A stretch of DNA of 30,206 nucleotides from a bacterium (GCA_046485285.1 JAWOHE010000082.1:1-30206), one strand, 5' to 3'. Counted from the stretch's first letter, positions 6,648-21,166 are shown. Made by a program: numbers and translations. Notes: generated from the letters alone by a model not told the origin.

Positions 6648-6676
6648 AGTGTAGCGACATGCGCCCGCCAAGTCAA
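6648..6676 (-). promoter_or_regulatory. Sigma70-type promoter for yitT
   Basis: Minus strand TTGACT-N17-TACACT, about 20 nt before ATG 6629. Confidence 0.6.
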
Positions 6677-6818
6677 TCTACCGCGACATCATCGCCCTAA
6701 GTACATTGTTGGTGGCAATATATCTTGCCTGTCGCAGTTGACCGGGTTGGTGTCGCACTTCGGGGTTGACTTGAACCGGCCGACCGATATAATGCGGCGT
6801 GGCAGAGCGTTTGTCGCA
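6654..6818. promoter_or_regulatory. Cluster of TGTCGC(A) motifs; putative operator half-sites
   Basis: TGTCGCA at 6730, 6751 and 6812; GCGACA at 6654 and 6683. The same motif recurs at 12142-12249. Confidence 0.55.
6766..6793 (+). promoter_or_regulatory. Sigma70-type promoter for the large regulator
   Basis: TTGACT-N16-TATAAT, with a GGAG RBS before ATG 6869. Confidence 0.7.
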
Positions 6819-6868
6819 CCGTCCGGGTCGCGCCCGGGCCGGGCGCGACGGGCCCGGCAGGAGCCGTA

Positions 6869-9800
6869 ATGCGTGAGCCACCCGGAATCGTGATGTCCGC
6901 CTCGCTGCCGGAGGGTTCGCTCGTATCCGACCGGTACGAGGTGATTTCCCTGCTTGGCGGCGGCACCGCGACCGAGGTCTACGAGGTGCGCGACATCATC
7001 GGGAACCGGACTCTCGCGATGAAGATGCTGAGGGAGGACGCCGATAAGGAGGCCGAGGTCCGTTTGTCGCGGGAGTTCTACCATTTGTCGCGGTTCTCCC
7101 ACGCGGGCATCATCCAGGCCATCGACTACGGGACGACACATGAGCACCGGCCGTATTTCGTGATGGAGTTTTTCCCGGGCAAGCCGCTTAATCGCCACTT
7201 CGCCAAGGGCTATGCGCCGGAGCTTGAGTCAGTTACGGTCCAGGTGCTCCGGGCGCTGGACAGCATTCACGCCCAGGGCCTGATTCACTGCGACTTGAAG
7301 CCGGAGAACGTCCTTGTCGCAGAGCTCGACGGCGAGCCGGTGGCCAAACTGCTCGATTTCGGCTTCGCTGAGCGGCTGACAATCGGCGAGGCGATTGAGC
7401 CGCGCGGCACACTGGGATATGTCGCACCTGAGGTGTTCAAGGGAGCGGATGCCGACGCCCGCGCGGACCTGTACTCGCTCGGGATGATTCTCTACGAGGT
7501 CGTCACCGGTACCGGCCCGTCGTCCGAGAAGAGCATCCGCGACTGGCTGAGGCGGCAGTACTTCTCCGAACTGCCGTCGCCGCGCAAGGCGAATCCCGAC
7601 ATCCCGGAGCGTTTCGAGGCGGTCCTGCTGTCACTGACCCACAAGAACCCGGACCGGCGGCCCCGTTCCGCCGCCGCGGTCATCCGCGCCCTGAACGGGT
7701 CGGAGGAGAGCCCTGAGCAGGCCGGGCCCCGCAAGTACCTGATGGCGCCGGCTTTCGTCGGCCGGGGCGAGTACCTGAGCGGGTTGCGGGACGCGCTGCG
7801 CGACGGCGCGCAGAGCCGGGCAAGGGTGGTCTGCGTGTCGGGCGAGCGGGGAGTGGGCAAGAGCCGGTTGATGTCGGAGTTCAAGTTCCTCGCCCAGCTC
7901 GAGGGCGCGACGATCTTCTCTTTCGAGCCCGGGTCGCTGGGCGCCCGGCCGCAGTCGCTGGTCGAGGCGCTCCTGGGATACCTCCGGGTCTACGCCCGGG
8001 CCGACCTGCCGAGTGACGACGAGGCGGAACGGGCCTCGGCCACCGGCGAGGGCAAGTACCGGCTGTTCGAGACGGTGACCCAGCGGCTGAAGGACCTGGC
8101 CGGGTCGCACCGCGTCAGCCACAGCCTGGTCATCATCGTCGACGACTTCGAGCTGTTCGACCCGACGAGCCTCGAGTTCCTGCGTTACCTCGGGTTCAGT
8201 CTCGACAAGGACCGCATCACCATCCTGGTCTGCGGGCTGAAGGAGCGCCGGTTCCTTGACCTCATCGCCGAGTTCGGCCGCACCGGGCACTCGGCGCACA
8301 TCTCACTGCCGACGATGACCGGCGAGGAGACCGCCGGGCTGGCGGCGTCGCTGTTGGGCGAGGTCAACGACTCGCCGGCGCTGGCGAAGTGGCTGGTCCA
8401 GGCGACCGGCGGCAACCCGCTGTTCGCGATCGAGACCGTCCACGCGCTGATCGACGGCCGGGTGCTCTTGTTCCGCAACGGCCGCTGGGTGCTGGAGCTC
8501 TCCTCGCTCGACGCCTACCGGCCGCCCGAGACGGTGACCGACGTGGTCCAGCGCCGGCTCGACAACCTGACCGCCGAGGAGCTCGAGGTGCTGAGAATCG
8601 GCGCGGCGTCGGGCGGGCCGTTCACGATCGAGTTTCTGCGGGCGGTGGTCGGCATCGACGAGCGGGTGCTGTTCAACGCCATCGGCCGGCTCAAGGCGCT
8701 TGGTCTCCTGCGGACTTTCGCGGCCGAGGGTGGCGCGGCGCTGGTGCTGTCGAGCAAGATCCTCGAGGCGGTCATCACCGGGCGGCTGAGCGTCGAGGAG
8801 CGGCGCGAGAATCACCGCCGGGTCGCGCTGGCCCTGGAGCTGCTCTACCCGGAGAAGCAGGACAAGCTGGTCTTCGACCTCGCCCACCACTACGCCCAGG
8901 CCGGAATCGCCGACCGCGCCTATGCCTGTTCGGTCCGGGCCGGCCGGCGCGCGCGCGACTACCAGCTTTCCGAGCAGGCGCTCGGGTTCTTCGAGACCGC
9001 GCTCGCGCTCTCCGCCGGGACGGCGCCGGTGCGGGAGCGGCTCGAGCTCATCGAGACGGTCGGCGAACTGCGCGAGGCGACCGGCAAGTACGCCGAGGCG
9101 ATAGACATCTACACCCAGGGGATGAGCCTGGTCGTCTCGGACCGCGAACTGCCAAGCCGCAAGGACCTGCTCGCCCGGCTCCTGCGCCGGCTCGGGCTGG
9201 TCCACCAGCGGCTCGGGCAGTCGGCCGAGGCGCTGAACTTCTTCAACCAGGCGCTGCTGATGCACCCGGACCGGGCATCGGTGGGCTACATCCAGTTGCT
9301 CGACGACCTCGGCTGGTCGTACTGCGCGGCGCAGGAGTTCAACCGGGCCGAGGACCTGCTGACCCAGGCGCTGCATCTCGCCGACCGGCTCAAGCCGACC
9401 GACGCGGAGGCCTACAACCGGATGTCGGCCCGCACGCTCTACTACTTCGGCGTGATGAGCTGGACGCGGCAGGACCACGTGCTGGCGCTCCAGCTCGCCG
9501 AGCGCAGTCTTGGCATCTACGAGAGCATCCGCGACGACCACAACGTCGGCAAGGTCAGCCAGTTCATCGCGACGCTGTGGTGGCGGCGGGGCGAGCTCGA
9601 CAAGGCCAAGGACTACTACCTGAAGTACCTGCCGGCCCAGCGCAAGGGCGCGGAGGTCTCGCTCCTGCTCCGGACGCTCCAGGGACTCGGGCTTATCAGC
9701 CAGGACGAGGGCGAGTGGGACCGGGCCTATGACTACCTTGACGAGGCGTTGAGAATCGCCCAGCGCATCGGCGACGCGCCGGCGACGATCGACCTCGAGA

Positions 9801-12127
9801 GCGGCATCGGCTCGGTCTGCGACGAGCGCGGCGAGTGGGACGAGGCGCTCCGGCACTTCGGCCGCGCCGACGAGGTGCTGGCCGCGTCGGGCCAGGGCGG
9901 AGGGTATGAGAAGGCGGTGGTTCGCGCCAACCGGGCGCGCATCCTGGGCCGGCGGGGCCTCATCGACGAGGCCGAGCAGGAGCTCGCCGGTGCGCTGGAA
10001 CAGGCGGAGCAGCTTGCCGACGCCAACCTCGGGTTCTTCGTCCTGCTCTACCAGGCCGAGCTCGCGCTGCTCGCCGAGCGAAACGACACCGCCCGCCAGC
10101 GGATCATCCGCGCCGGGCGCGAGTTCCGGCGCGAGCGCGACTGGCGCCAGCGTGCCGCCTTCCGCGATGTCGCCAGCCAGTTCCGGCTGGCGCATGGCGA
10201 TTTCGCTCGCGCGCTCGCCGACGCGACCCGGGCGCTCGCCTACCTGAAGGACAAGTCGGCGGCGAAGGAACAGGCCCAGGCACTGCGCAACTCCGGGCTT
10301 GCCCGCTACGCCCTCGACCGGCACGAGCGGGGCGCGGCCGAGATCAAGCGCAGCATCGAACTGCTGAAGGCGTCCGGCTCGACCTACGAGCTCGGCCGGT
10401 CGCTCTACGCGTCGGCGCGGGCGCTGGCCCGGCAGACCCCGGGCGAGCGGACGGTCGACTTCCGCATGCCGGTTTCCTTCCGGCCGGTTCCGCCCCACGT
10501 CCTGACCGAGGCGCTGGCGAACCTGAAGCAGGCCGAGGAGGTATTCCGGCGGCTGGGCGCGCGCATTGACCTCGCGCGCACCGAGGAACTCGCCGAGGCG
10601 CTCACCCAGGTGTCGGCGACGATGCAGCTCAAGGCACGCGAGCGGGGCGAGTACCTCAAGGTCTTCTACCGGCTGAGCGAGCTGATGAGCCTGGGCCTCG
10701 ACAAGGAGGACTTCGCCGAGCGGGTGCTCGACCTCGTCATCGAGGTCACCCGGGCCGAGCGCGGAGTGCTCTTCCTGGCGCACGGCAGCAAGCTGGTGCC
10801 GGCCGCCGCCCGCAGCGTCGACCAGGCGACGGTCGAGGACGCGAAGGACGTGTCCCAGTCGGTACTGCGCAAGGTCAGACGCCGGGGCGAGCTGGTCTTC
10901 TCGGCCGACGCGATGTCCGACCCGAGGTTCTCGGCCGCCAACAGCGTGATGCTGAACCGAATCCGGTCGATGCTCTGCGCGCCGCTCCGCACCGAGAACA
11001 AGGTCATCGGGACGATCTACCTCGACAGCCGGGTGACCGCCCACCTGTTCCTCGAGGAGGACAAGAACCTGCTGATGTCGGTGGCCAACCTGCTCGGCGC
11101 GACGATCGACAGGTCGCAGAGTTTCCAGCGGCTGCAGGAGGAGATGTCGACGCAGCGCGAGGATGTCCCGGTCGATGATGCAACCGGGTTCTTCATTGGC
11201 CGGTCCCGGGCGATGCGCGAAGTCTATCAGGTCGTCGACCAGATCGCCGAGACCGACTGCACCGTCCTGCTCACCGGTGAGACCGGCACGGGCAAGGGCG
11301 TGATCGCCCAATTGATTCACGCCCGGAGCGAGCGCCGAGGCAGGGCCCTCGTGACAATCAACTGCGGGGCGCTGCCCGAGCCGTTGCTCGAGAGCGAGCT
11401 CTTCGGGCACGTCCGGGGCGCGTTCACCGGCGCGGTCCGCGACAAGACCGGGCTTTTCGAGACCGCGGAGGGGGGGACCGCGTTTCTTGACGAGATCACC
11501 AACACGACGCTGAACACCCAGGGCAAGCTGCTCCAGGTGCTCGAGGAGAAGACGATCCGCCGGCTCGGAGACACCGAGACCAAGCGTGTCGACATCCGGC
11601 TCATCTGCGCGACCAACGTCGACCTGCGAAAGGAGGTCGAGGCCGGCAGGTTCCGGCAGGACCTTTTCTACCGGATGAACGTCGTGTCAATCGAGGTTCC
11701 GCCCCTGCGCGACCGGACCGGGGACGTGCCGCAGCTCGCCGGGTTCTTCGTCAAGCGCTGCGCTCGCCAGTTGAACAAACCGGTCATCGGCTTCGAACCG
11801 CCGGTTCTCAGGGCGTTTTCGACCTATCGCTGGCCGGGCAATGTCAGGGAGATGGCCAACGTCATCGAGCGTGCAGCAATAATGACCCAGAAGCGTCGCA
11901 TCACGCTTGAAGACCTCGGTGCCGCCTTTGCCAACCTCAGGGCAGAGCAGGAAGAAGTGGGCACGCGGCGGCGCAGGGGGAGGGCGGTTGATCGCGAGGC
12001 GATCATCAAGGCCCTCCGCGCCCACGATGGCAATGTCACCCGCGCAGCAGATTCCCTGGCAACGCATCGCCGTCAACTTCAAAGACTTATCCAACGGTAC
12101 GCCATAGACCGCTCTGACCTGAGCTAG
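6869..12127 (+). CDS. Multidomain sigma54-dependent activator: Ser/Thr kinase + STAND/AAA_16 ATPase + TPR + GAF + sigma54 AAA+ + Fis-type HTH
   Basis: Kinase: AMK, IHCDLKPEN, DFG, YVAPE, DLYSLG. ATPase: FVGR, GERGVGKS, IVDD, TGGNPLF. Long TPR-like helical region. GAF: AERG...DPRF...SMLCAPL...IGTIYLD. bEBP: GETGTGK, GAFTGA, FLDEI, DLFYRMN, WPGNVRE. HTH: GNVTRAADSL. Confidence 0.92.
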   Translation: MREPPGIVMSASLPEGSLVSDRYEVISLLGGGTATEVYEVRDIIGNRTLAMKMLREDADKEAEVRLSREFYHLSRFSHAGIIQAIDYGTTHEHRPYFVMEFFPGKPLNRHFAKGYAPELESVTVQVLRALDSIHAQGLIHCDLKPENVLVAELDGEPVAKLLDFGFAERLTIGEAIEPRGTLGYVAPEVFKGADADARADLYSLGMILYEVVTGTGPSSEKSIRDWLRRQYFSELPSPRKANPDIPERFEAVLLSLTHKNPDRRPRSAAAVIRALNGSEESPEQAGPRKYLMAPAFVGRGEYLSGLRDALRDGAQSRARVVCVSGERGVGKSRLMSEFKFLAQLEGATIFSFEPGSLGARPQSLVEALLGYLRVYARADLPSDDEAERASATGEGKYRLFETVTQRLKDLAGSHRVSHSLVIIVDDFELFDPTSLEFLRYLGFSLDKDRITILVCGLKERRFLDLIAEFGRTGHSAHISLPTMTGEETAGLAASLLGEVNDSPALAKWLVQATGGNPLFAIETVHALIDGRVLLFRNGRWVLELSSLDAYRPPETVTDVVQRRLDNLTAEELEVLRIGAASGGPFTIEFLRAVVGIDERVLFNAIGRLKALGLLRTFAAEGGAALVLSSKILEAVITGRLSVEERRENHRRVALALELLYPEKQDKLVFDLAHHYAQAGIADRAYACSVRAGRRARDYQLSEQALGFFETALALSAGTAPVRERLELIETVGELREATGKYAEAIDIYTQGMSLVVSDRELPSRKDLLARLLRRLGLVHQRLGQSAEALNFFNQALLMHPDRASVGYIQLLDDLGWSYCAAQEFNRAEDLLTQALHLADRLKPTDAEAYNRMSARTLYYFGVMSWTRQDHVLALQLAERSLGIYESIRDDHNVGKVSQFIATLWWRRGELDKAKDYYLKYLPAQRKGAEVSLLLRTLQGLGLISQDEGEWDRAYDYLDEALRIAQRIGDAPATIDLESGIGSVCDERGEWDEALRHFGRADEVLAASGQGGGYEKAVVRANRARILGRRGLIDEAEQELAGALEQAEQLADANLGFFVLLYQAELALLAERNDTARQRIIRAGREFRRERDWRQRAAFRDVASQFRLAHGDFARALADATRALAYLKDKSAAKEQAQALRNSGLARYALDRHERGAAEIKRSIELLKASGSTYELGRSLYASARALARQTPGERTVDFRMPVSFRPVPPHVLTEALANLKQAEEVFRRLGARIDLARTEELAEALTQVSATMQLKARERGEYLKVFYRLSELMSLGLDKEDFAERVLDLVIEVTRAERGVLFLAHGSKLVPAAARSVDQATVEDAKDVSQSVLRKVRRRGELVFSADAMSDPRFSAANSVMLNRIRSMLCAPLRTENKVIGTIYLDSRVTAHLFLEEDKNLLMSVANLLGATIDRSQSFQRLQEEMSTQREDVPVDDATGFFIGRSRAMREVYQVVDQIAETDCTVLLTGETGTGKGVIAQLIHARSERRGRALVTINCGALPEPLLESELFGHVRGAFTGAVRDKTGLFETAEGGTAFLDEITNTTLNTQGKLLQVLEEKTIRRLGDTETKRVDIRLICATNVDLRKEVEAGRFRQDLFYRMNVVSIEVPPLRDRTGDVPQLAGFFVKRCARQLNKPVIGFEPPVLRAFSTYRWPGNVREMANVIERAAIMTQKRRITLEDLGAAFANLRAEQEEVGTRRRRGRAVDREAIIKALRAHDGNVTRAADSLATHRRQLQRLIQRYAIDRSDLS

Positions 12128-12141
12128 TGCGTCAGCTTGGC

Positions 12142-12249
12142 GCGACACTCAGGTAGCTGAACTGACAAGAAATGAGTAACTTAGCACAACTAGTGCCTAG
12201 TGTCGCAGTAAGGCACGCCATATCGTCAGAAGTGTCGCACCATGCGACA
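12142..12249. promoter_or_regulatory. Putative upstream activator sequences (enhancer) for the sigma54 promoter
   Basis: GCGACA at 12142, TGTCGCA at 12201 and a perfect inverted repeat TGTCGCA-cca-TGCGACA at 12233-12249, followed by an AT-rich tract. Confidence 0.65.
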
Positions 12250-12295
12250 TTGAGATATGTGTTTGATAAAATGCGAGTTATGTTTTTCAGGCGAA

Positions 12296-12311
12296 TGGCA
12301 TTGCCTGTGCA
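12296..12311 (+). promoter_or_regulatory. Sigma54 (-24/-12) promoter
   Basis: TGGCATTGCCTGTGCA: GG(12297-98)-N10-GC(12309-10). It lies directly downstream of a bEBP gene and about 60 nt before a start with a strong RBS. Confidence 0.75.
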
Positions 12312-12370
12312 TATATACTAGAGGCGTTTGAAGTGCGCTCGTGGCTCTGGTGCCACAGGAGGAGTCCCTT

Positions 12371-12574
12371 ATGAGAAGAACTGCGATGGCCTTGCTCTTC
12401 GTGCTGTTCGCCGCCGTGTCGTTTGCCCAGGAGGATGGCGGTATACCGTTGCCGCCGCGGCCGCTGCCGATACCGGACCCGAGCGGGGTGGTGCTCCTGG
12501 CGGACGGTACGGCTGACCCTGACGGCATACCGTTGCCGCCGCGGCCGCTACCGATACCGGACCCGAGGGGCTAG
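12371..12574 (+). CDS. 67-aa secreted peptide precursor with two identical Pro-rich cores
   Basis: RBS AGGAGGAG. MRRTAMALLFVLFAAVSFA-QEDG is a Sec-type signal peptide. GIPLPPRPLPIPDP occurs twice (12440-12481, 12524-12565). Confidence 0.8.
   Translation: MRRTAMALLFVLFAAVSFAQEDGGIPLPPRPLPIPDPSGVVLLADGTADPDGIPLPPRPLPIPDPRG
12440..12565 (+). repeat. Two 42-nt direct repeats with an 84-nt period
   Basis: The copies differ only at two synonymous third positions (GGT/GGC, CTG/CTA). Confidence 0.9.
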
Positions 12575-12678
12575 CAGCCTTCGGGGACGGCAGCGGATAG
12601 CGCCTTCGTGCATTGCCCGGCCGGCAGGGTCGGCGTGGTGTTTCTCTCGGCCGCAGCAGAGCCGCGCCCGGGCATTCG

Positions 12679-12706
12679 TTGACTGTCCCGAACCCACTCG
12701 TATAAT
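12679..12706 (+). promoter_or_regulatory. Sigma70-type promoter for smpB, probably leaderless
   Basis: TTGACT-N16-TATAAT, 7 nt before GTG 12714. Confidence 0.7.
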
Positions 12707-12713
12707 CGAGGGC

Positions 12714-13169
12714 GTGACTGCCGTCGCGACCAACCGCAAGGCCTTCCGGGACTACGAGGTTATCGAGAAGCTCGAGGCGGGCATAGAGCTGGCCGGCACC
12801 GAGGTCAAGTCCCTACGCGGCGGCAACGTCTCGCTTGACGAGGGCTTCGCCCGGGTCGAAGACGATCAGGTCTGGCTCTACGGAGTCCACATCGCGCCCT
12901 ACGCCCAGGGCAATATCTTCAACCGCGACCCGCGCCGCCGGCGCAAGCTGTTGCTGCACAAGCTGGAGATTCGCCGGCTGTTCGGCCGGGCGACCATCCG
13001 CGGGCTCACGCTCGTGCCGCTCCGGCTCTACTTCAACAAGCGCGGGTATGCCAAGGTCGAACTGGCGCTGTGCCGGGGCAAGAAGCTCCACGACCGGCGC
13101 GAGGATCTCCGCAAGCGCGCGCTCGAGCGCGACGAGCGGCTCGAGACGTCGCGCAGGCAGGCGAGGTGA
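12714..13169 (+). CDS. smpB: SsrA-binding protein SmpB
   Basis: ATNRKAFRDY, EAGIELAGTEVKSLR, RKLLLHKLEI, LTLVPLRLYF, GKKLHDRR. Confidence 0.97.
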   Translation: MTAVATNRKAFRDYEVIEKLEAGIELAGTEVKSLRGGNVSLDEGFARVEDDQVWLYGVHIAPYAQGNIFNRDPRRRRKLLLHKLEIRRLFGRATIRGLTLVPLRLYFNKRGYAKVELALCRGKKLHDRREDLRKRALERDERLETSRRQAR

Positions 13170-18715: not shown

Positions 18716-21166
18716 TCACTTCTGCGGACACGCCTGCTGCGCCGCCGAGCGGATGGCGGACGCCCGCGCGCCGAGTTCCCGGGCTTCCGCTTCCCGGCCG
18801 GTCTTCCCGCACAGGCCGGCCAGGACATCCAGCGACACCGCCACGAGGGGGTGGTTGGGGCCCAGTCTGGCTTCCCGGATCGCCAGGGCCCGCCGCGCCA
18901 GCGGCTCGGCCTCAGCCCACCTGTCCTGTGCGTACAGCAGGGCGGCCAGGTTGCCCAGCAGGTGGGCGACGTTCGGGTGCTGAGGGCCCAGCGCCTTCTC
19001 GAGGACGGCCAGTCCCCGCCGCGCCAGCGGCTCGGCTTCGGCATACTTCTTCTGCGACTTGAGCAGCATCGCGAGGTTGTGCAGCACCCCGGCGATGCGC
19101 GGGTGCTCCAGTCCCAGCTTCTTCTCAAGTATGGTAAGGGCTCGCCGGTGCAGGGCCTCGGCTTCGGCCTCGGCCTCCTTACCCATTCGACCCAGCAGGG
19201 CGGCGAGGTTGTCCATGTTGTTGGCGACATCCGGGTGCTCCGGCCCCAACGCCTCTTCCCTGATGGCGATAGCCCGACGGTGCAGCGGCACGGCTTCGGC
19301 ATACCTGTCTTGCTGCGAGAGCAGCACGGCGAAGTTGTTCAGGCAGATGGCCACCTGGGGGTGCCGTTGGCCGAGAGTCTTCTCCAGGACTACCAGGGCT
19401 CGCCGAAACAGCGACTCGGCTTCGGCGGTCCTGTTGCGGTCCTGCAGCAGGCTCGCCAGGTCGTTCAGGCAGGCGGCCACCTGGGGATGCTCCGCTCCCA
19501 GCGCCCGCTCGGAAATCGCCAGGGCTCGCCGCGCGAGCGGCTCGGCCTCGGCGAAGTCACCGTGCAGTCGCCAGAGCAGCATCGCCAGGTTGTCGAGGTT
19601 TTCGCCCACGGCCGGATGGTCGGGCCCGAGCTCGGCCTCGAGGTCGCGCCCCAACCTCTCGTAGAACTGCACGAGCAGCCGCCACTGCGCCGCTTGGTAG
19701 AACGGCTCGGCCTGCTCGTGGAGCCATCGACAGAAATCCAGCACCGGCAGTGCGGCCCGGCCGTGGTGGAACCCCTCGTCCAGCGCCCCCTTGTGCCGCT
19801 CGGTGACGTTGCCGATGTCGATGTCCTTGAGTCGTCCGGTGTAGTGCTCGAGAATCCGGCGGTGCACGCGCCGCACCAGTTCCGGCGACGCGTTCTCCCG
19901 GAGCGCCTGCTGCATCAGTTGGTGCATGGTCCAGACGCCGTGAGCGGCTTCCTCGTTGATGAACGAGAATCGGCACAGGTCGGCGAAGGCGGTCAGCGGG
20001 AACCCGGTCTGGAACTCGCGGACCAGGGTCTCGAACAGCTCGAGGTCCCAGAACCGCGGCACGGCCAGCAGCTTCAGCGTCTCGACCTCGGGCTGGGTCA
20101 GGTGTCTGATGAAACGCTCGGTCACCTCCCGGCCGGTCCGGCCGAAGTCGCCGGGCTCGGGCTTGCGGCCCAGGCGGTCCGATATCTCCCGGAAGGCGTC
20201 CACCGCCAGGTCGAGGTAGTAAGGCACACCCTGACCACCGGTGACGATCGCGTCCTGCACCGGCCCCTCACCGATGCCGCACGAGGCGAGGAAGCGCCGG
20301 GCGTCGTCCCCGGACAGGCCGCCGACCAGGTGCTGGTCCAGGCAGTCGGCCCATTCCGCGTCGATGTCCGCCCAGCGCAGCATCTCGCGGCCGCAGATCA
20401 CCCACAGCACCTCGGGCAACTGGGCAACGAGCTCCCGGACCCACGCGTCCTGCTGGTGGCGCCGGGCGTCAGTCCGCTCGCCCGCGGCCAGCGCCTCGTA
20501 GGTGTCGAGGAACAGGACCGCGCGGCGGGACTTCCGGCTGAGGAAGTCCCTGAGGTCCGCGGCCCAGAACATCGGCAGCCGCTCGGCGATCTGTGGCGGC
20601 TCGAGTGCGGGCAGGTCGCGGAGTTCCTGCGAGCCCCGGCGCGTCCACCACTCCTGCAGGGCGTGTCCGCCCCGGGCGGCGAGCATCGCGAACTTGGGCA
20701 CGGCCTCGACAAACGGGATGCTGCCGCAGGCAGCCAGCATCTCCGTGACCATATCGCCGTCCTCGAGGAGCGGCAGAGTCGATCGGTTCATCGGCGTCTG
20801 GGGCCGGGTCTTCTGCCAGAAGGTGGCATAGGCGATGTCGAAGGTCGGGAACCGGACGTGGTTCCGGGTGTGCAGGGCCTTGCGCAGCACGAACAGGGCA
20901 GTTTCCTCGTCGCGGTGTCCCGGCACGTCGAAGTCGACAGTCGCGGTGACCGCTTCGGGCGCCTCGGCGAACAGCCGGGCGAGTTCGCGGCGGAGGCTGG
21001 ACTTGCCGATTCCGCCGACACCGTAGAAGATCAGCACCGAGGGTTGGTCTCGGCGCCCGGCAGCCAGCGCCTTCCTGAACGCGGCTACGAAATCCTCGCG
21101 GTCGGTGAATTGCCGCGCGGCCCGCTGCGCCGCGGCGCCGAGTGAGTGTTTGGGCTTTACCGGCAT
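18716..21166 (-). CDS. STAND-like P-loop NTPase with C-terminal TPR array
   Basis: RBS GAGGAG. FTDRE, Walker A GVGGIGKS, Walker B LFLDTYE and GVPYYL motifs; about 6 kinesin-light-chain-type 42-aa TPRs (LGPxHPxVAxxLxNLA). Confidence 0.88.
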   Translation of the reverse strand: MPVKPKHSLGAAAQRAARQFTDREDFVAAFRKALAAGRRDQPSVLIFYGVGGIGKSSLRRELARLFAEAPEAVTATVDFDVPGHRDEETALFVLRKALHTRNHVRFPTFDIAYATFWQKTRPQTPMNRSTLPLLEDGDMVTEMLAACGSIPFVEAVPKFAMLAARGGHALQEWWTRRGSQELRDLPALEPPQIAERLPMFWAADLRDFLSRKSRRAVLFLDTYEALAAGERTDARRHQQDAWVRELVAQLPEVLWVICGREMLRWADIDAEWADCLDQHLVGGLSGDDARRFLASCGIGEGPVQDAIVTGGQGVPYYLDLAVDAFREISDRLGRKPEPGDFGRTGREVTERFIRHLTQPEVETLKLLAVPRFWDLELFETLVREFQTGFPLTAFADLCRFSFINEEAAHGVWTMHQLMQQALRENASPELVRRVHRRILEHYTGRLKDIDIGNVTERHKGALDEGFHHGRAALPVLDFCRWLHEQAEPFYQAAQWRLLVQFYERLGRDLEAELGPDHPAVGENLDNLAMLLWRLHGDFAEAEPLARRALAISERALGAEHPQVAACLNDLASLLQDRNRTAEAESLFRRALVVLEKTLGQRHPQVAICLNNFAVLLSQQDRYAEAVPLHRRAIAIREEALGPEHPDVANNMDNLAALLGRMGKEAEAEAEALHRRALTILEKKLGLEHPRIAGVLHNLAMLLKSQKKYAEAEPLARRGLAVLEKALGPQHPNVAHLLGNLAALLYAQDRWAEAEPLARRALAIREARLGPNHPLVAVSLDVLAGLCGKTGREAEARELGARASAIRSAAQQACPQK

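Follow-up and report, generated by a model that had tools for sequence, protein, structure and literature searches.

The stretch of DNA considered here (GCA_046485285.1 JAWOHE010000082.1:1-30206; 30,206 nucleotides, hereafter the window) carries on its plus strand a gene for a giant regulator of 1752 amino acids (6869..12127), followed by a predicted sigma-54 dependent promoter and by a gene for a small proline-rich peptide precursor of 67 amino acids (ATG at 12371 to stop at 12574). The assembly to which it belongs (G000) comprises 2.34 Mb, is 88% complete and has about 70% GC, and the named contigs with close orthologues of the regulator are metagenome-assembled genomes of 'candidate division WOR-3', a widespread phylum with a single cultured strain and unstudied regulation. 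Among the public sequencing runs no RNA run is listed, and the single DNA run contains 0.05 of the words. An earlier note on this DNA had described a 1752-residue protein with kinase, STAND ATPase, TPR, GAF, GAFTGA-containing AAA+ and helix-turn-helix (HTH) modules, all of which are found by Pfam matches and by motifs. The start that the note had given, 6654, lies 5' of the ATG at 6869.

The regulator begins with a Hanks-type Ser/Thr kinase domain (residues 23-268; 6935..7672, plus strand; Pfam PF00069, Pkinase, 1.6e-43) with the catalytic lysine, the catalytic-loop aspartate and the DFG and APE motifs; because its catalytic loop reads HCD, the kinase is non-RD by sequence. It is followed by a STAND-type AAA_16 P-loop NTPase (residues 296-459; 7754..8245, plus strand), matched by PF13191 at residues 296-441 (2.7e-20) and by AAA_22 (PF13401, 4.1e-13), with the Walker A motif GERGVGKS and the Walker B motif VDD. 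Next comes, as in STAND proteins, a repeat sensor region, here a TPR solenoid at about residues 641-1260 (8789..10648, plus strand; TPR_12 3e-26, TPR_1, TPR_2), in which the TPR_12/TPR_1 matches cover residues ~769-1000 and weaker repeats lie farther on. A GAF domain (residues 1278-1415; 10700..11113, plus strand; PF01590 6e-17, Pfam match 1280-1413) leads to a sigma-54 interaction AAA+ domain with its lid (residues 1443-1695; 11195..11953, plus strand), where Sigma54_activat (PF00158, 8.8e-69) matches residues 1443-1609, the GAFTGA loop occupies residues 1517-1522 and the lid is of the AAA_lid_14 type (PF25601, 2.4e-22). The chain ends in a Fis-type HTH_8 DNA-binding domain (residues 1706-1744; 11984..12100, plus strand; PF02954 1.1e-06, over the cut-off), so that the GAFTGA AAA+ domain with Walker A and B motifs and the C-terminal HTH of a bacterial enhancer-binding protein are both present. 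Since the most hydrophobic 19-residue window scores only 1.32 on the Kyte-Doolittle scale, the protein is predicted to be cytoplasmic, without a membrane segment.

In an alignment of 20 orthologues, the key residues of all three nucleotide-binding modules are invariant: K52, E69, D142, DFG 163-165 and APE 186-188 in the kinase, G325, G328, G330, K331 and D425 in the STAND NTPase, and G1470-K1476, F1519, T1520, D1541 and E1542 in the AAA+ domain. Every domain is conserved, with mean orthologue identity highest in the GAF domain (73%), at 59% in the first part of the TPR region (641-1010) and lowest in its second part (45%, 1011-1260). Judged from the sequence, ATP-dependent activation of the peptide promoter by the regulator is the most likely mode of action. 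The PADLOC matches of the regulator, to generic kinase and RtcR-like AAA+ models, are too generic to be taken as membership of a defence system.

Behind the regulator, the earlier note had described palindromic TGTCGCA sites, a -24/-12 box and a 67-residue signal-peptide open reading frame (ORF) with a duplicated core, and each of these is present. A GCGACA half-site was located by motif scan at 12142-12147, a distal putative enhancer half-site, TGTCGCA, at 12201..12207, about 94 nt before the -24 box, and a proximal putative enhancer, the perfect palindrome TGTCGCAccaTGCGACA (TGTCGCA-N3-TGCGACA), at 12233..12249, about 53-62 nt before the -24 box, all on the plus strand. The spacing of this palindrome is unique among the eight TGTCGC-N(3-7)-GCGACA palindromes of the window's genome. 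The predicted -24/-12 promoter, TGGCATTGCCTGTGCA, lies at 12296..12311 (plus strand), and the genome has rpoN (Sigma54_DBD 7.4e-46 on contig C37). A Shine-Dalgarno sequence, GGAGG (12358..12362, plus strand), stands 8 nt before the peptide ATG, and a terminator-like hairpin with a T-rich tail is found 3' of the peptide gene (12617..12643, plus strand); two such sites were found, against 0.3 expected in shuffles. Rfam gave no match in the whole window.

The precursor opens with a signal peptide (residues 1-19) which, judged by eye, has an RR n-region, a hydrophobic core and the end SFA|QE. It contains two identical cores of the form DG(G)IPLPPRPLPIPDP, encoded on the plus strand at 12434-12481 and 12521-12565, the second being preceded by a hydrophobic spacer ending in LLA|DG. 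No Pfam, NCBIfam or PADLOC family covers the peptide, the ESM Atlas searched with the 67-residue precursor gave best scores of 0.75, within the range of shuffled proteins, and across the six-frame translation of the 2.34-Mb genome the core motif occurs only in this ORF.

By genome comparison, the regulator is a conserved single-copy orthologue. Near-full-length matches occur in 25 of 41 genomes sampled from the order (37-100% identity), further genomes of this sample have matches cut by contig ends, and the five genomes of family f5 have none. In a sample of 151 genomes from the phylum, matches at E <= 1e-150 were found in 35, including full-length relatives of 29-34% identity in other classes. 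A collection of 5.8 billion proteins yielded 1301 at E <= 1e-50; almost all of the best 120 of these carry the same Pfam set and, where named, come from WOR-3, TA06 or 'Stahlbacteria', under generic database names such as 'sigma 54-interacting transcriptional regulator' or 'Nif-specific regulatory protein'. Kinase-activator fusions may occur in myxobacteria as well. Among the candidates for the full architecture outside WOR-3, related fusions are limited to L210, with a partial kinase, TPR, GAF, sigma-54 and HTH domains, and L145, from Cloacimonadota, with TPR, GAF, sigma-54 and HTH domains; the DNA downstream of these two holds no proline-rich ORF. Of the other candidates, L057, L058 and L066 proved to be separate or different genes, and the supposed fusions L146-L148, L150 and L153 are kinase genes adjoining activator genes. 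In family f21 (G113, G095, G126, G091, G100), the regulator matches contain one or two in-frame stops (TAA, or TGA plus TAA) while a frame of 1687-1698 amino acids is nonetheless open, so the stops could mark the edge of the alignment, a gene in two pieces or recoding.

The pairing of regulator and peptide gene was followed through 28 unique loci with a full-length regulator, 25 of which have at least 400 nt of downstream DNA. An automatic rule, under which a Shine-Dalgarno site, start and stop codons and a proline-rich motif all had to fall within 500 nt, found a proline-rich ORF in 22 of the 25, and the three loci that it missed carry one too, in one case (L004) running past the contig end. 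Since the ORF recurs in all 25 orthologue loci, against 0/25 reverse strands and 0/500 shuffles, the arrangement is more than chance. It recurs also in 6/6 loci of families f3 and f4 (GC about 30-39%, regulator identity 37-41%) and in 2/2 further loci of family f1, that is, in 8/8 additional loci of the order, so that the pairing is kept across 30-70% GC. The gap between the two genes measures 243 nt in the window; across the 25 loci it is 176-336 nt in 22 and 436-1018 nt in three, two of which lie behind insertions. These insertions, between the regulator stop and the peptide promoter, are of ~0.8 kb in L007/L025 (G021) and ~0.3 kb in L012/L039 (G020); behind those of L007 and L012 the enhancer, box, Shine-Dalgarno site and ORF are otherwise intact.

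The intervening DNA is conserved along with the genes. In an alignment of 19 intergenic regions, five blocks stand in register, namely gtGCGACA, TAAGT...TTA, TGGCAt-N5-tTGC, AAAcGGAGG and ATG GAC GG, and the Shine-Dalgarno site and ATG GAC GG are conserved over 38-64% GC. In 23 of the 25 loci the peptide start is preceded, at a distance of 31-59 nt, by a sigma-54 box that matches 8 or more of 11 positions. TGCGAC/GTCGCA half-sites accompany it in 22 of 24 box-bearing loci, clustering at -89 to -95 and at -52 to -57, with a mean of 1.67 against 0.086 in control windows (about 20-fold). A composite pattern of box, Shine-Dalgarno site and ATGGAYGG matches once per genome in 8 of the 41 genomes, always directly behind the giant gene; a control pattern gave no match. 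The expectation in the earlier note that homologues would be followed by a -24/-12 box and a short signal-peptide ORF is thus borne out for the box and for the ORF, although the latter is mostly leaderless (27/33).

Of the 16 usable loci in more remote classes (29-34% identity), 9 have a small proline-rich ORF behind the regulator. Most of these ORFs encode a signal peptide, whereas that of L108 is leaderless and has two (D/N)GIP units. Of the remaining loci, two have larger secreted proteins with a proline-rich start, and five have nothing similar. Downstream of distant relatives in L113 (G054) and L122 (G087), secreted proteins of 261-399 amino acids, not micropeptides, are encoded behind a sigma-54 box or the regulator and have a proline-rich mature N-terminus (QGMDNPPPPDS... 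and ADEPFDPEPRPWG...); the end of one of them looks like a C-terminal tail of the type IX secretion system (T9SS) type.

The wiring of the giant activator to an adjacent sigma-54 promoter and a small peptide gene, as put forward in the earlier note, has strong comparative-genomic support, in a genome in which rpoN is present, and we regard it as very probable. The conservation and the position of promoter, enhancer and ORF are observed; that the neighbouring regulator is the activator which binds the enhancer is inferred from them. The adjacency could also be nothing but inherited gene order, with another activator driving the peptide promoter and the giant protein regulating other genes. Because the window's genome encodes about ten further sigma-54 activator domains, another activator could serve this promoter, and a second sigma-54 box with three GCGACA sites, at G000:C5:21377, would also suit such a view. 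However, the pairing survives a change of both flanks, insertions between both genes, a GC range from 30 to 70% and a fall of regulator identity down to 37%, and genomes without the giant gene have no match to the composite pattern, which detects only some forms. Inherited order is therefore a highly improbable account.

The second box, TGGCACGGAACTTGCA, lies in the window's genome outside the window (G000:C5:21150-21470; locus L141, about 1150-1470). Its three GCGACA sites stand 74-152 nt upstream, a TAAGT element accompanies it, and it is followed by a Shine-Dalgarno site and a 10-codon ORF (MPAYSAGSVL). It could be a further site of action for the regulator or for an activator related to it; a comparison with four congeneric genomes found no conservation of this DNA.

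The peptides of the order share the unit D-G-(x)-I/V-P-x-P-P-x-P-x-P(-P), with the core DGIPxPPxPxP, and come in two forms. In 27 of 33 loci the product, a 16-21-mer, has no leader and begins with the unit itself, as in MDGIPIPPRPGPLGPP, MDGIVPILPPPRPAPPVK and MFGVFVPPPPLPCPPK. In the other six (L001, L003, L004, L006, L019, L020), it is a signal-peptide precursor of 58 (cut by the contig end) to about 130 amino acids with two to five near-identical units. In these secreted forms the unit starts directly after the predicted signal-peptide cleavage site, and the spacers between units end in hydrophobic residues plus Ala or Val before the next Asp-Gly (LLA|DG, LFA|DG, IFA|DG, ILV|DG), which, as read from the sequences, resembles a signal-peptide cleavage region. 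Because some units abut directly in L020, the minimal unit has 12 residues. On a neighbour-joining tree of the regulator (BLOSUM62, midpoint root), the loci with secreted forms are split between two clades of the order, and most of the distant outgroup loci have such forms too, so that leaderless and secreted forms have switched at least twice; as the tree carries no support values, this number is only indicative. Codon differences between orthologous peptides comprise 100 synonymous against 84 non-synonymous ones (the pairs are not independent), which argues for selection on the amino-acid sequence.

In L028, two leaderless peptide genes stand in tandem at downstream offsets 226 and 314, and the copies (MNDSYPILPQPGPIAPPLGI and ...PLY) each have their own ribosome-binding site and a TTG start. 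Read from the sequence, this duplication at the level of the gene is a parallel to the intragenic repeats of the secreted forms.

On another view, the peptide product itself would be irrelevant and its ORF would work in cis, as a leader or polyproline arrest peptide: ribosomes pausing on PPxP/PPP would report on EF-P, on translation or on the capacity for secretion and would govern a downstream gene, smpB in the window. Every orthologue does contain PP or PPP, smpB encodes a ribosome-rescue factor and is the next gene in about half of the f1 loci, and a role in cis would explain why leaderless and signal-peptide forms are interchangeable. A leader peptide is nevertheless expected to precede a conserved gene on the same transcript, and here the neighbour varies: smpB was detected in 11 of the 25 loci, plus L010 by eye, and it does not follow the regulator in L102-L107, in the distant loci or anywhere else outside part of f1. 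In the window, smpB (GTG at 12714; NCBIfam 3.4e-56) has, as the earlier note had it, a strong promoter of its own, TTGACT-16-TATAAT at 12679-12706 with 11/12 sigma-70 matches, its -10 box being equally spaced in L025 and L039, and a terminator-like site separates it from the ORF. The residues D-G-I/V are conserved as well as the prolines, and the tandem identical cores together with the gene duplication in L028 point to product dosage. We consider the arrest mechanism very improbable.

The multi-copy precursors could alternatively be taken for a secreted proline-rich antimicrobial or competition factor, switched on by a danger-sensing STAND regulator. The peptide is small and proline-rich, its precursor holds several copies, its control by a STAND-type sensor would be tight, and the kinase and RtcR-like PADLOC matches, though generic, could be put on the same side. 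By a count of residues, however, the cores come out as neutral or acidic (DGGIPLPPRPLPIPDP with a single Arg beside two Asp), not strongly cationic and Pro/Arg-rich, and they are conserved over the whole order, unlike arms-race genes. Neither conserved immunity genes nor export genes are found nearby, the regulator being the sole universal neighbour, and the locus lies among housekeeping genes. An antimicrobial role is accordingly very improbable.

The reading to which we give about an even chance is that the locus is a dedicated two-gene module of sigma-54 regulator and micropeptide, conserved in WOR-3, in which the peptide is solely the output and is not re-imported to the TPR region. The giant cytoplasmic protein would integrate several inputs through its kinase, its nucleotide-driven STAND switch with a TPR sensor, and its GAF domain. 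Its HTH_8 domain would bind the TGCGACA-type half-sites about 90 and 55 bp upstream of the -24/-12 promoter, situated just behind the regulator's own stop codon, and its AAA+ ring would open the sigma-54 holoenzyme complex, giving a short, probably monocistronic mRNA that encodes only the proline-rich micropeptide. In the window's genus, the precursor with its two identical cores would be exported by the Sec route. Because the spacers end like a signal-peptide cleavage region, the units would probably be released outside the cytoplasm with an N-terminal Asp-Gly, and their target there would be a conserved partner, in the envelope or farther out. Export, processing and the site and nature of the action are all deduced from the sequences; action on a partner outside the cytoplasm is favoured over re-sensing by the TPR region in view of the order-wide conservation of the core and the lack of a visible importer.

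Several observations weigh against this output-only reading. Its main weakness is that 27 of the 33 order loci lack a signal peptide, so that action outside the cytoplasm cannot be generalised without postulating an exporter; the leaderless forms share the compartment of the TPR region, and cytoplasmic action on their part would make TPR feedback plausible. The window's genome is 88% complete and unrecognised importers may exist, and its other sigma-54 activator domains bear on the assignment of the promoter. In L014, L019 and L020 the boxes or half-sites are weak or not recognisable. Finally, the terminator is only consensus-like, and the fold of 12560-12700 is no better than that of shuffles (z = -0.65).

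The principal competitor is feedback, in which the peptide would bind the TPR/STAND part of its own regulator with a positive (autoinducing, quorum-like) or a negative effect, the leaderless forms acting directly in the cytoplasm and the secreted ones having to return. In every orthologue locus examined, the peptide gene directly adjoins that of the TPR regulator, the leaderless majority is made in the same compartment as the TPR region, and the at least two switches between leaderless and secreted forms on the neighbour-joining tree would fit a peptide whose final target is intracellular. The sections of PMC10075063 that define the RRNPP signature give it five criteria, with receptors of 250-500 amino acids, propeptides of 10-100 amino acids and adjacent genes at -60 to 400 bp, and they describe propeptides of the Sec type, leaderless ones and intragenic duplications. 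Three of the five are found in the WOR-3 module, namely the propeptide size (67 amino acids), the TPRs of the receptor and the adjacency (243 nt). The receptor, by contrast, has 1752 residues. As to secretion (by Sec or PptAB in the passages cited), the window's peptide shows a typical n-h-c signal by eye, whereas 27 of the 33 order loci have no signal sequence.

Machinery for re-import by an oligopeptide permease, a step that RRNPP systems need, is not visible. The Opp-type binding protein PF00496 gave no match in the 88%-complete genome of the window, nor did OPT, PTR2 or SbmA/BacA, and PF00496 was found in one of the 41 order genomes, which does not have the giant regulator gene. Cells of the cultured WOR-3 strain have an outer membrane and few ABC transporters, as stated in the part of PMC12285271 that describes it. 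The peptide core is conserved across the whole order, not diversified into private codes like those of pheromones, and the matches of the TPR sequence to structures in the Protein Data Bank are generic (TTC29, LGN, RapF with E = 5.8e-4, KLC1). A co-fold of regulator residues 640-1430 (with the alignment of 20 orthologues) and peptide residues 20-67 scored 0.07 against a mark of 0.32; it was run without controls and weighs neither way. The claim of the earlier note that an exported peptide is sensed by the TPR/STAND region in an autoinducing loop finds no support, given the leaderless majority, the lack of a detected importer and the conserved core. The module is not an RRNPP member, and feedback in the wider sense is unlikely.

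A more particular form of this proposal, which we hold to be more doubtful still, would make the polyproline micropeptide the cognate ligand of the TPR region of its own STAND-sigma-54 activator, originally as a leaderless intracellular switch that was later externalised in several lineages as a cell-to-cell signal. Externalisation would then have consisted in the addition of a signal peptide and of tandem cores, the window's genus included. If this were true, it would extend RRNPP-like peptide circuits to a diderm phylum for the first time and give the first case of STAND oligomerisation coupled to the assembly of a sigma-54 AAA+ ring; should the peptide prove to be a TPR ligand, the module would be categorically new.

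The known systems that come closest include the bacterial enhancer-binding proteins of the GAF type (NifA, NorR, FhlA), which share with the C-terminal 490 residues of the WOR-3 regulator the unit of GAF, GAFTGA AAA+ and HTH_8 domains. The C-terminal third is matched in NCBIfam by TIGR01817 nifA (6.4e-108) and NorR (7e-107), both under their cut-offs. Shared, too, is an enhancer about 55-95 bp upstream of a -24/-12 promoter adjoining the regulator gene. Unlike these proteins, the WOR-3 regulator has a 1270-residue N-terminal extension with kinase, STAND NTPase and TPR, and its target is an ORF of 16-21 codons, or one of 58-130 codons with a signal peptide, instead of an enzyme operon. With RRNPP systems (Rap-Phr, PlcR-PapR, NprR-NprX, AimR-AimP, Rgg-SHP), the module has in common a cytoplasmic TPR regulator beside a small propeptide gene, the occurrence of Sec-type and leaderless propeptides, and intragenic repeats, as far as the sections of PMC10075063 on that signature describe them. 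It differs in the size of its receptor, its sigma-54 AAA+ output, its diderm host, the importer not found and the core not diversified, and in that binding between receptor and peptide is hypothetical.

The fusion of an AAA_16 NTPase and a following TPR region to a transcriptional output is otherwise known from STAND regulators with a TPR sensor, such as MalT, the LAL/LuxR-type regulators and AfsR, and from the kinase-bearing PknK. Many of the regulator orthologues have a match to the Pfam TPR_MalT family. In contrast to these proteins, the output of the WOR-3 regulator is a second ATPase, the sigma-54 AAA+ ring, not a LuxR or SARP domain, and a GAF domain is intercalated. The TOMM kinase/cyclase fusion (TIGR03903) is a giant regulator found beside small peptide precursor genes. 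It matches the WOR-3 regulator in three stretches, the best on the kinase (48-275; 2.4e-61, 207.9 bits), but the score is far under the cut-off of 705.75 and the WOR-3 regulator has no cyclase domain; the window contains no TOMM maturation genes. In LuxO-qrr, PspF-PspA and ZraR-ZraP, an enhancer-binding protein controls, as its chief or neighbouring target, a tiny gene (qrr) or a small protein with feedback on the sensing system (PspA, ZraP). The targets of these circuits, unlike the micropeptide, are small RNAs or folded proteins of about 140-220 amino acids, and the activators are two-component or PspA-controlled, not kinase-STAND fusions.

Activator genes beside sigma-54 targets are ordinary, and the regulator family is already present in databases under generic names. 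What appears to be new is the recognition of the five-module architecture as a conserved orthologue across much of WOR-3, and also its obligate association with a micro-ORF for a polyproline peptide, which alternates between a leaderless form and a secreted form of several copies. Searches of the full-text literature, supplements not covered, returned no description of the module, and term look-ups in recent WOR-3 genome papers returned no mention of sigma factors, regulators or quorum sensing in the text so covered. WOR-3 genomes measure about 1.5-3.9 Mb, and the retention of their largest regulator together with a gene of 16-21 codons throughout the order, and in altered form throughout the phylum, suggests a central physiological switch. 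For research on small proteins, the module offers a micropeptide that is sharply delimited and validated by evolution, with its promoter known and a candidate for its regulator; for research on sigma-54 and STAND proteins, it offers one chain in which two different oligomerising ATPases are naturally fused with a kinase, a GAF domain and a TPR sensor. Its short, defined target promoter makes the system amenable to direct tests in a heterologous host.

The flanks of the module consist of housekeeping genes. Upstream of the regulator lie genes for a YitT-family membrane protein and a CN-hydrolase, which are syntenic with it only in part of family f1, and on the 3' side follow smpB, an amidase, a glutamate racemase-type Asp/Glu racemase, RNase PH and a pseudouridine synthase. 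Some 6.6 kb downstream, on the minus strand (18719-21166 of the window), is encoded a protein of 816 amino acids without a recognised enzymatic domain, which is made up mostly of TPR_12/TPR_10 repeats (TPR_12 7.2e-73) and has a weak MalT-like TPR match. In the window, 7 nt separate the TATAAT of the smpB promoter from the start codon, and the same spacing of the -10 boxes in L025 and L039 points to a leaderless smpB mRNA in these bacteria.

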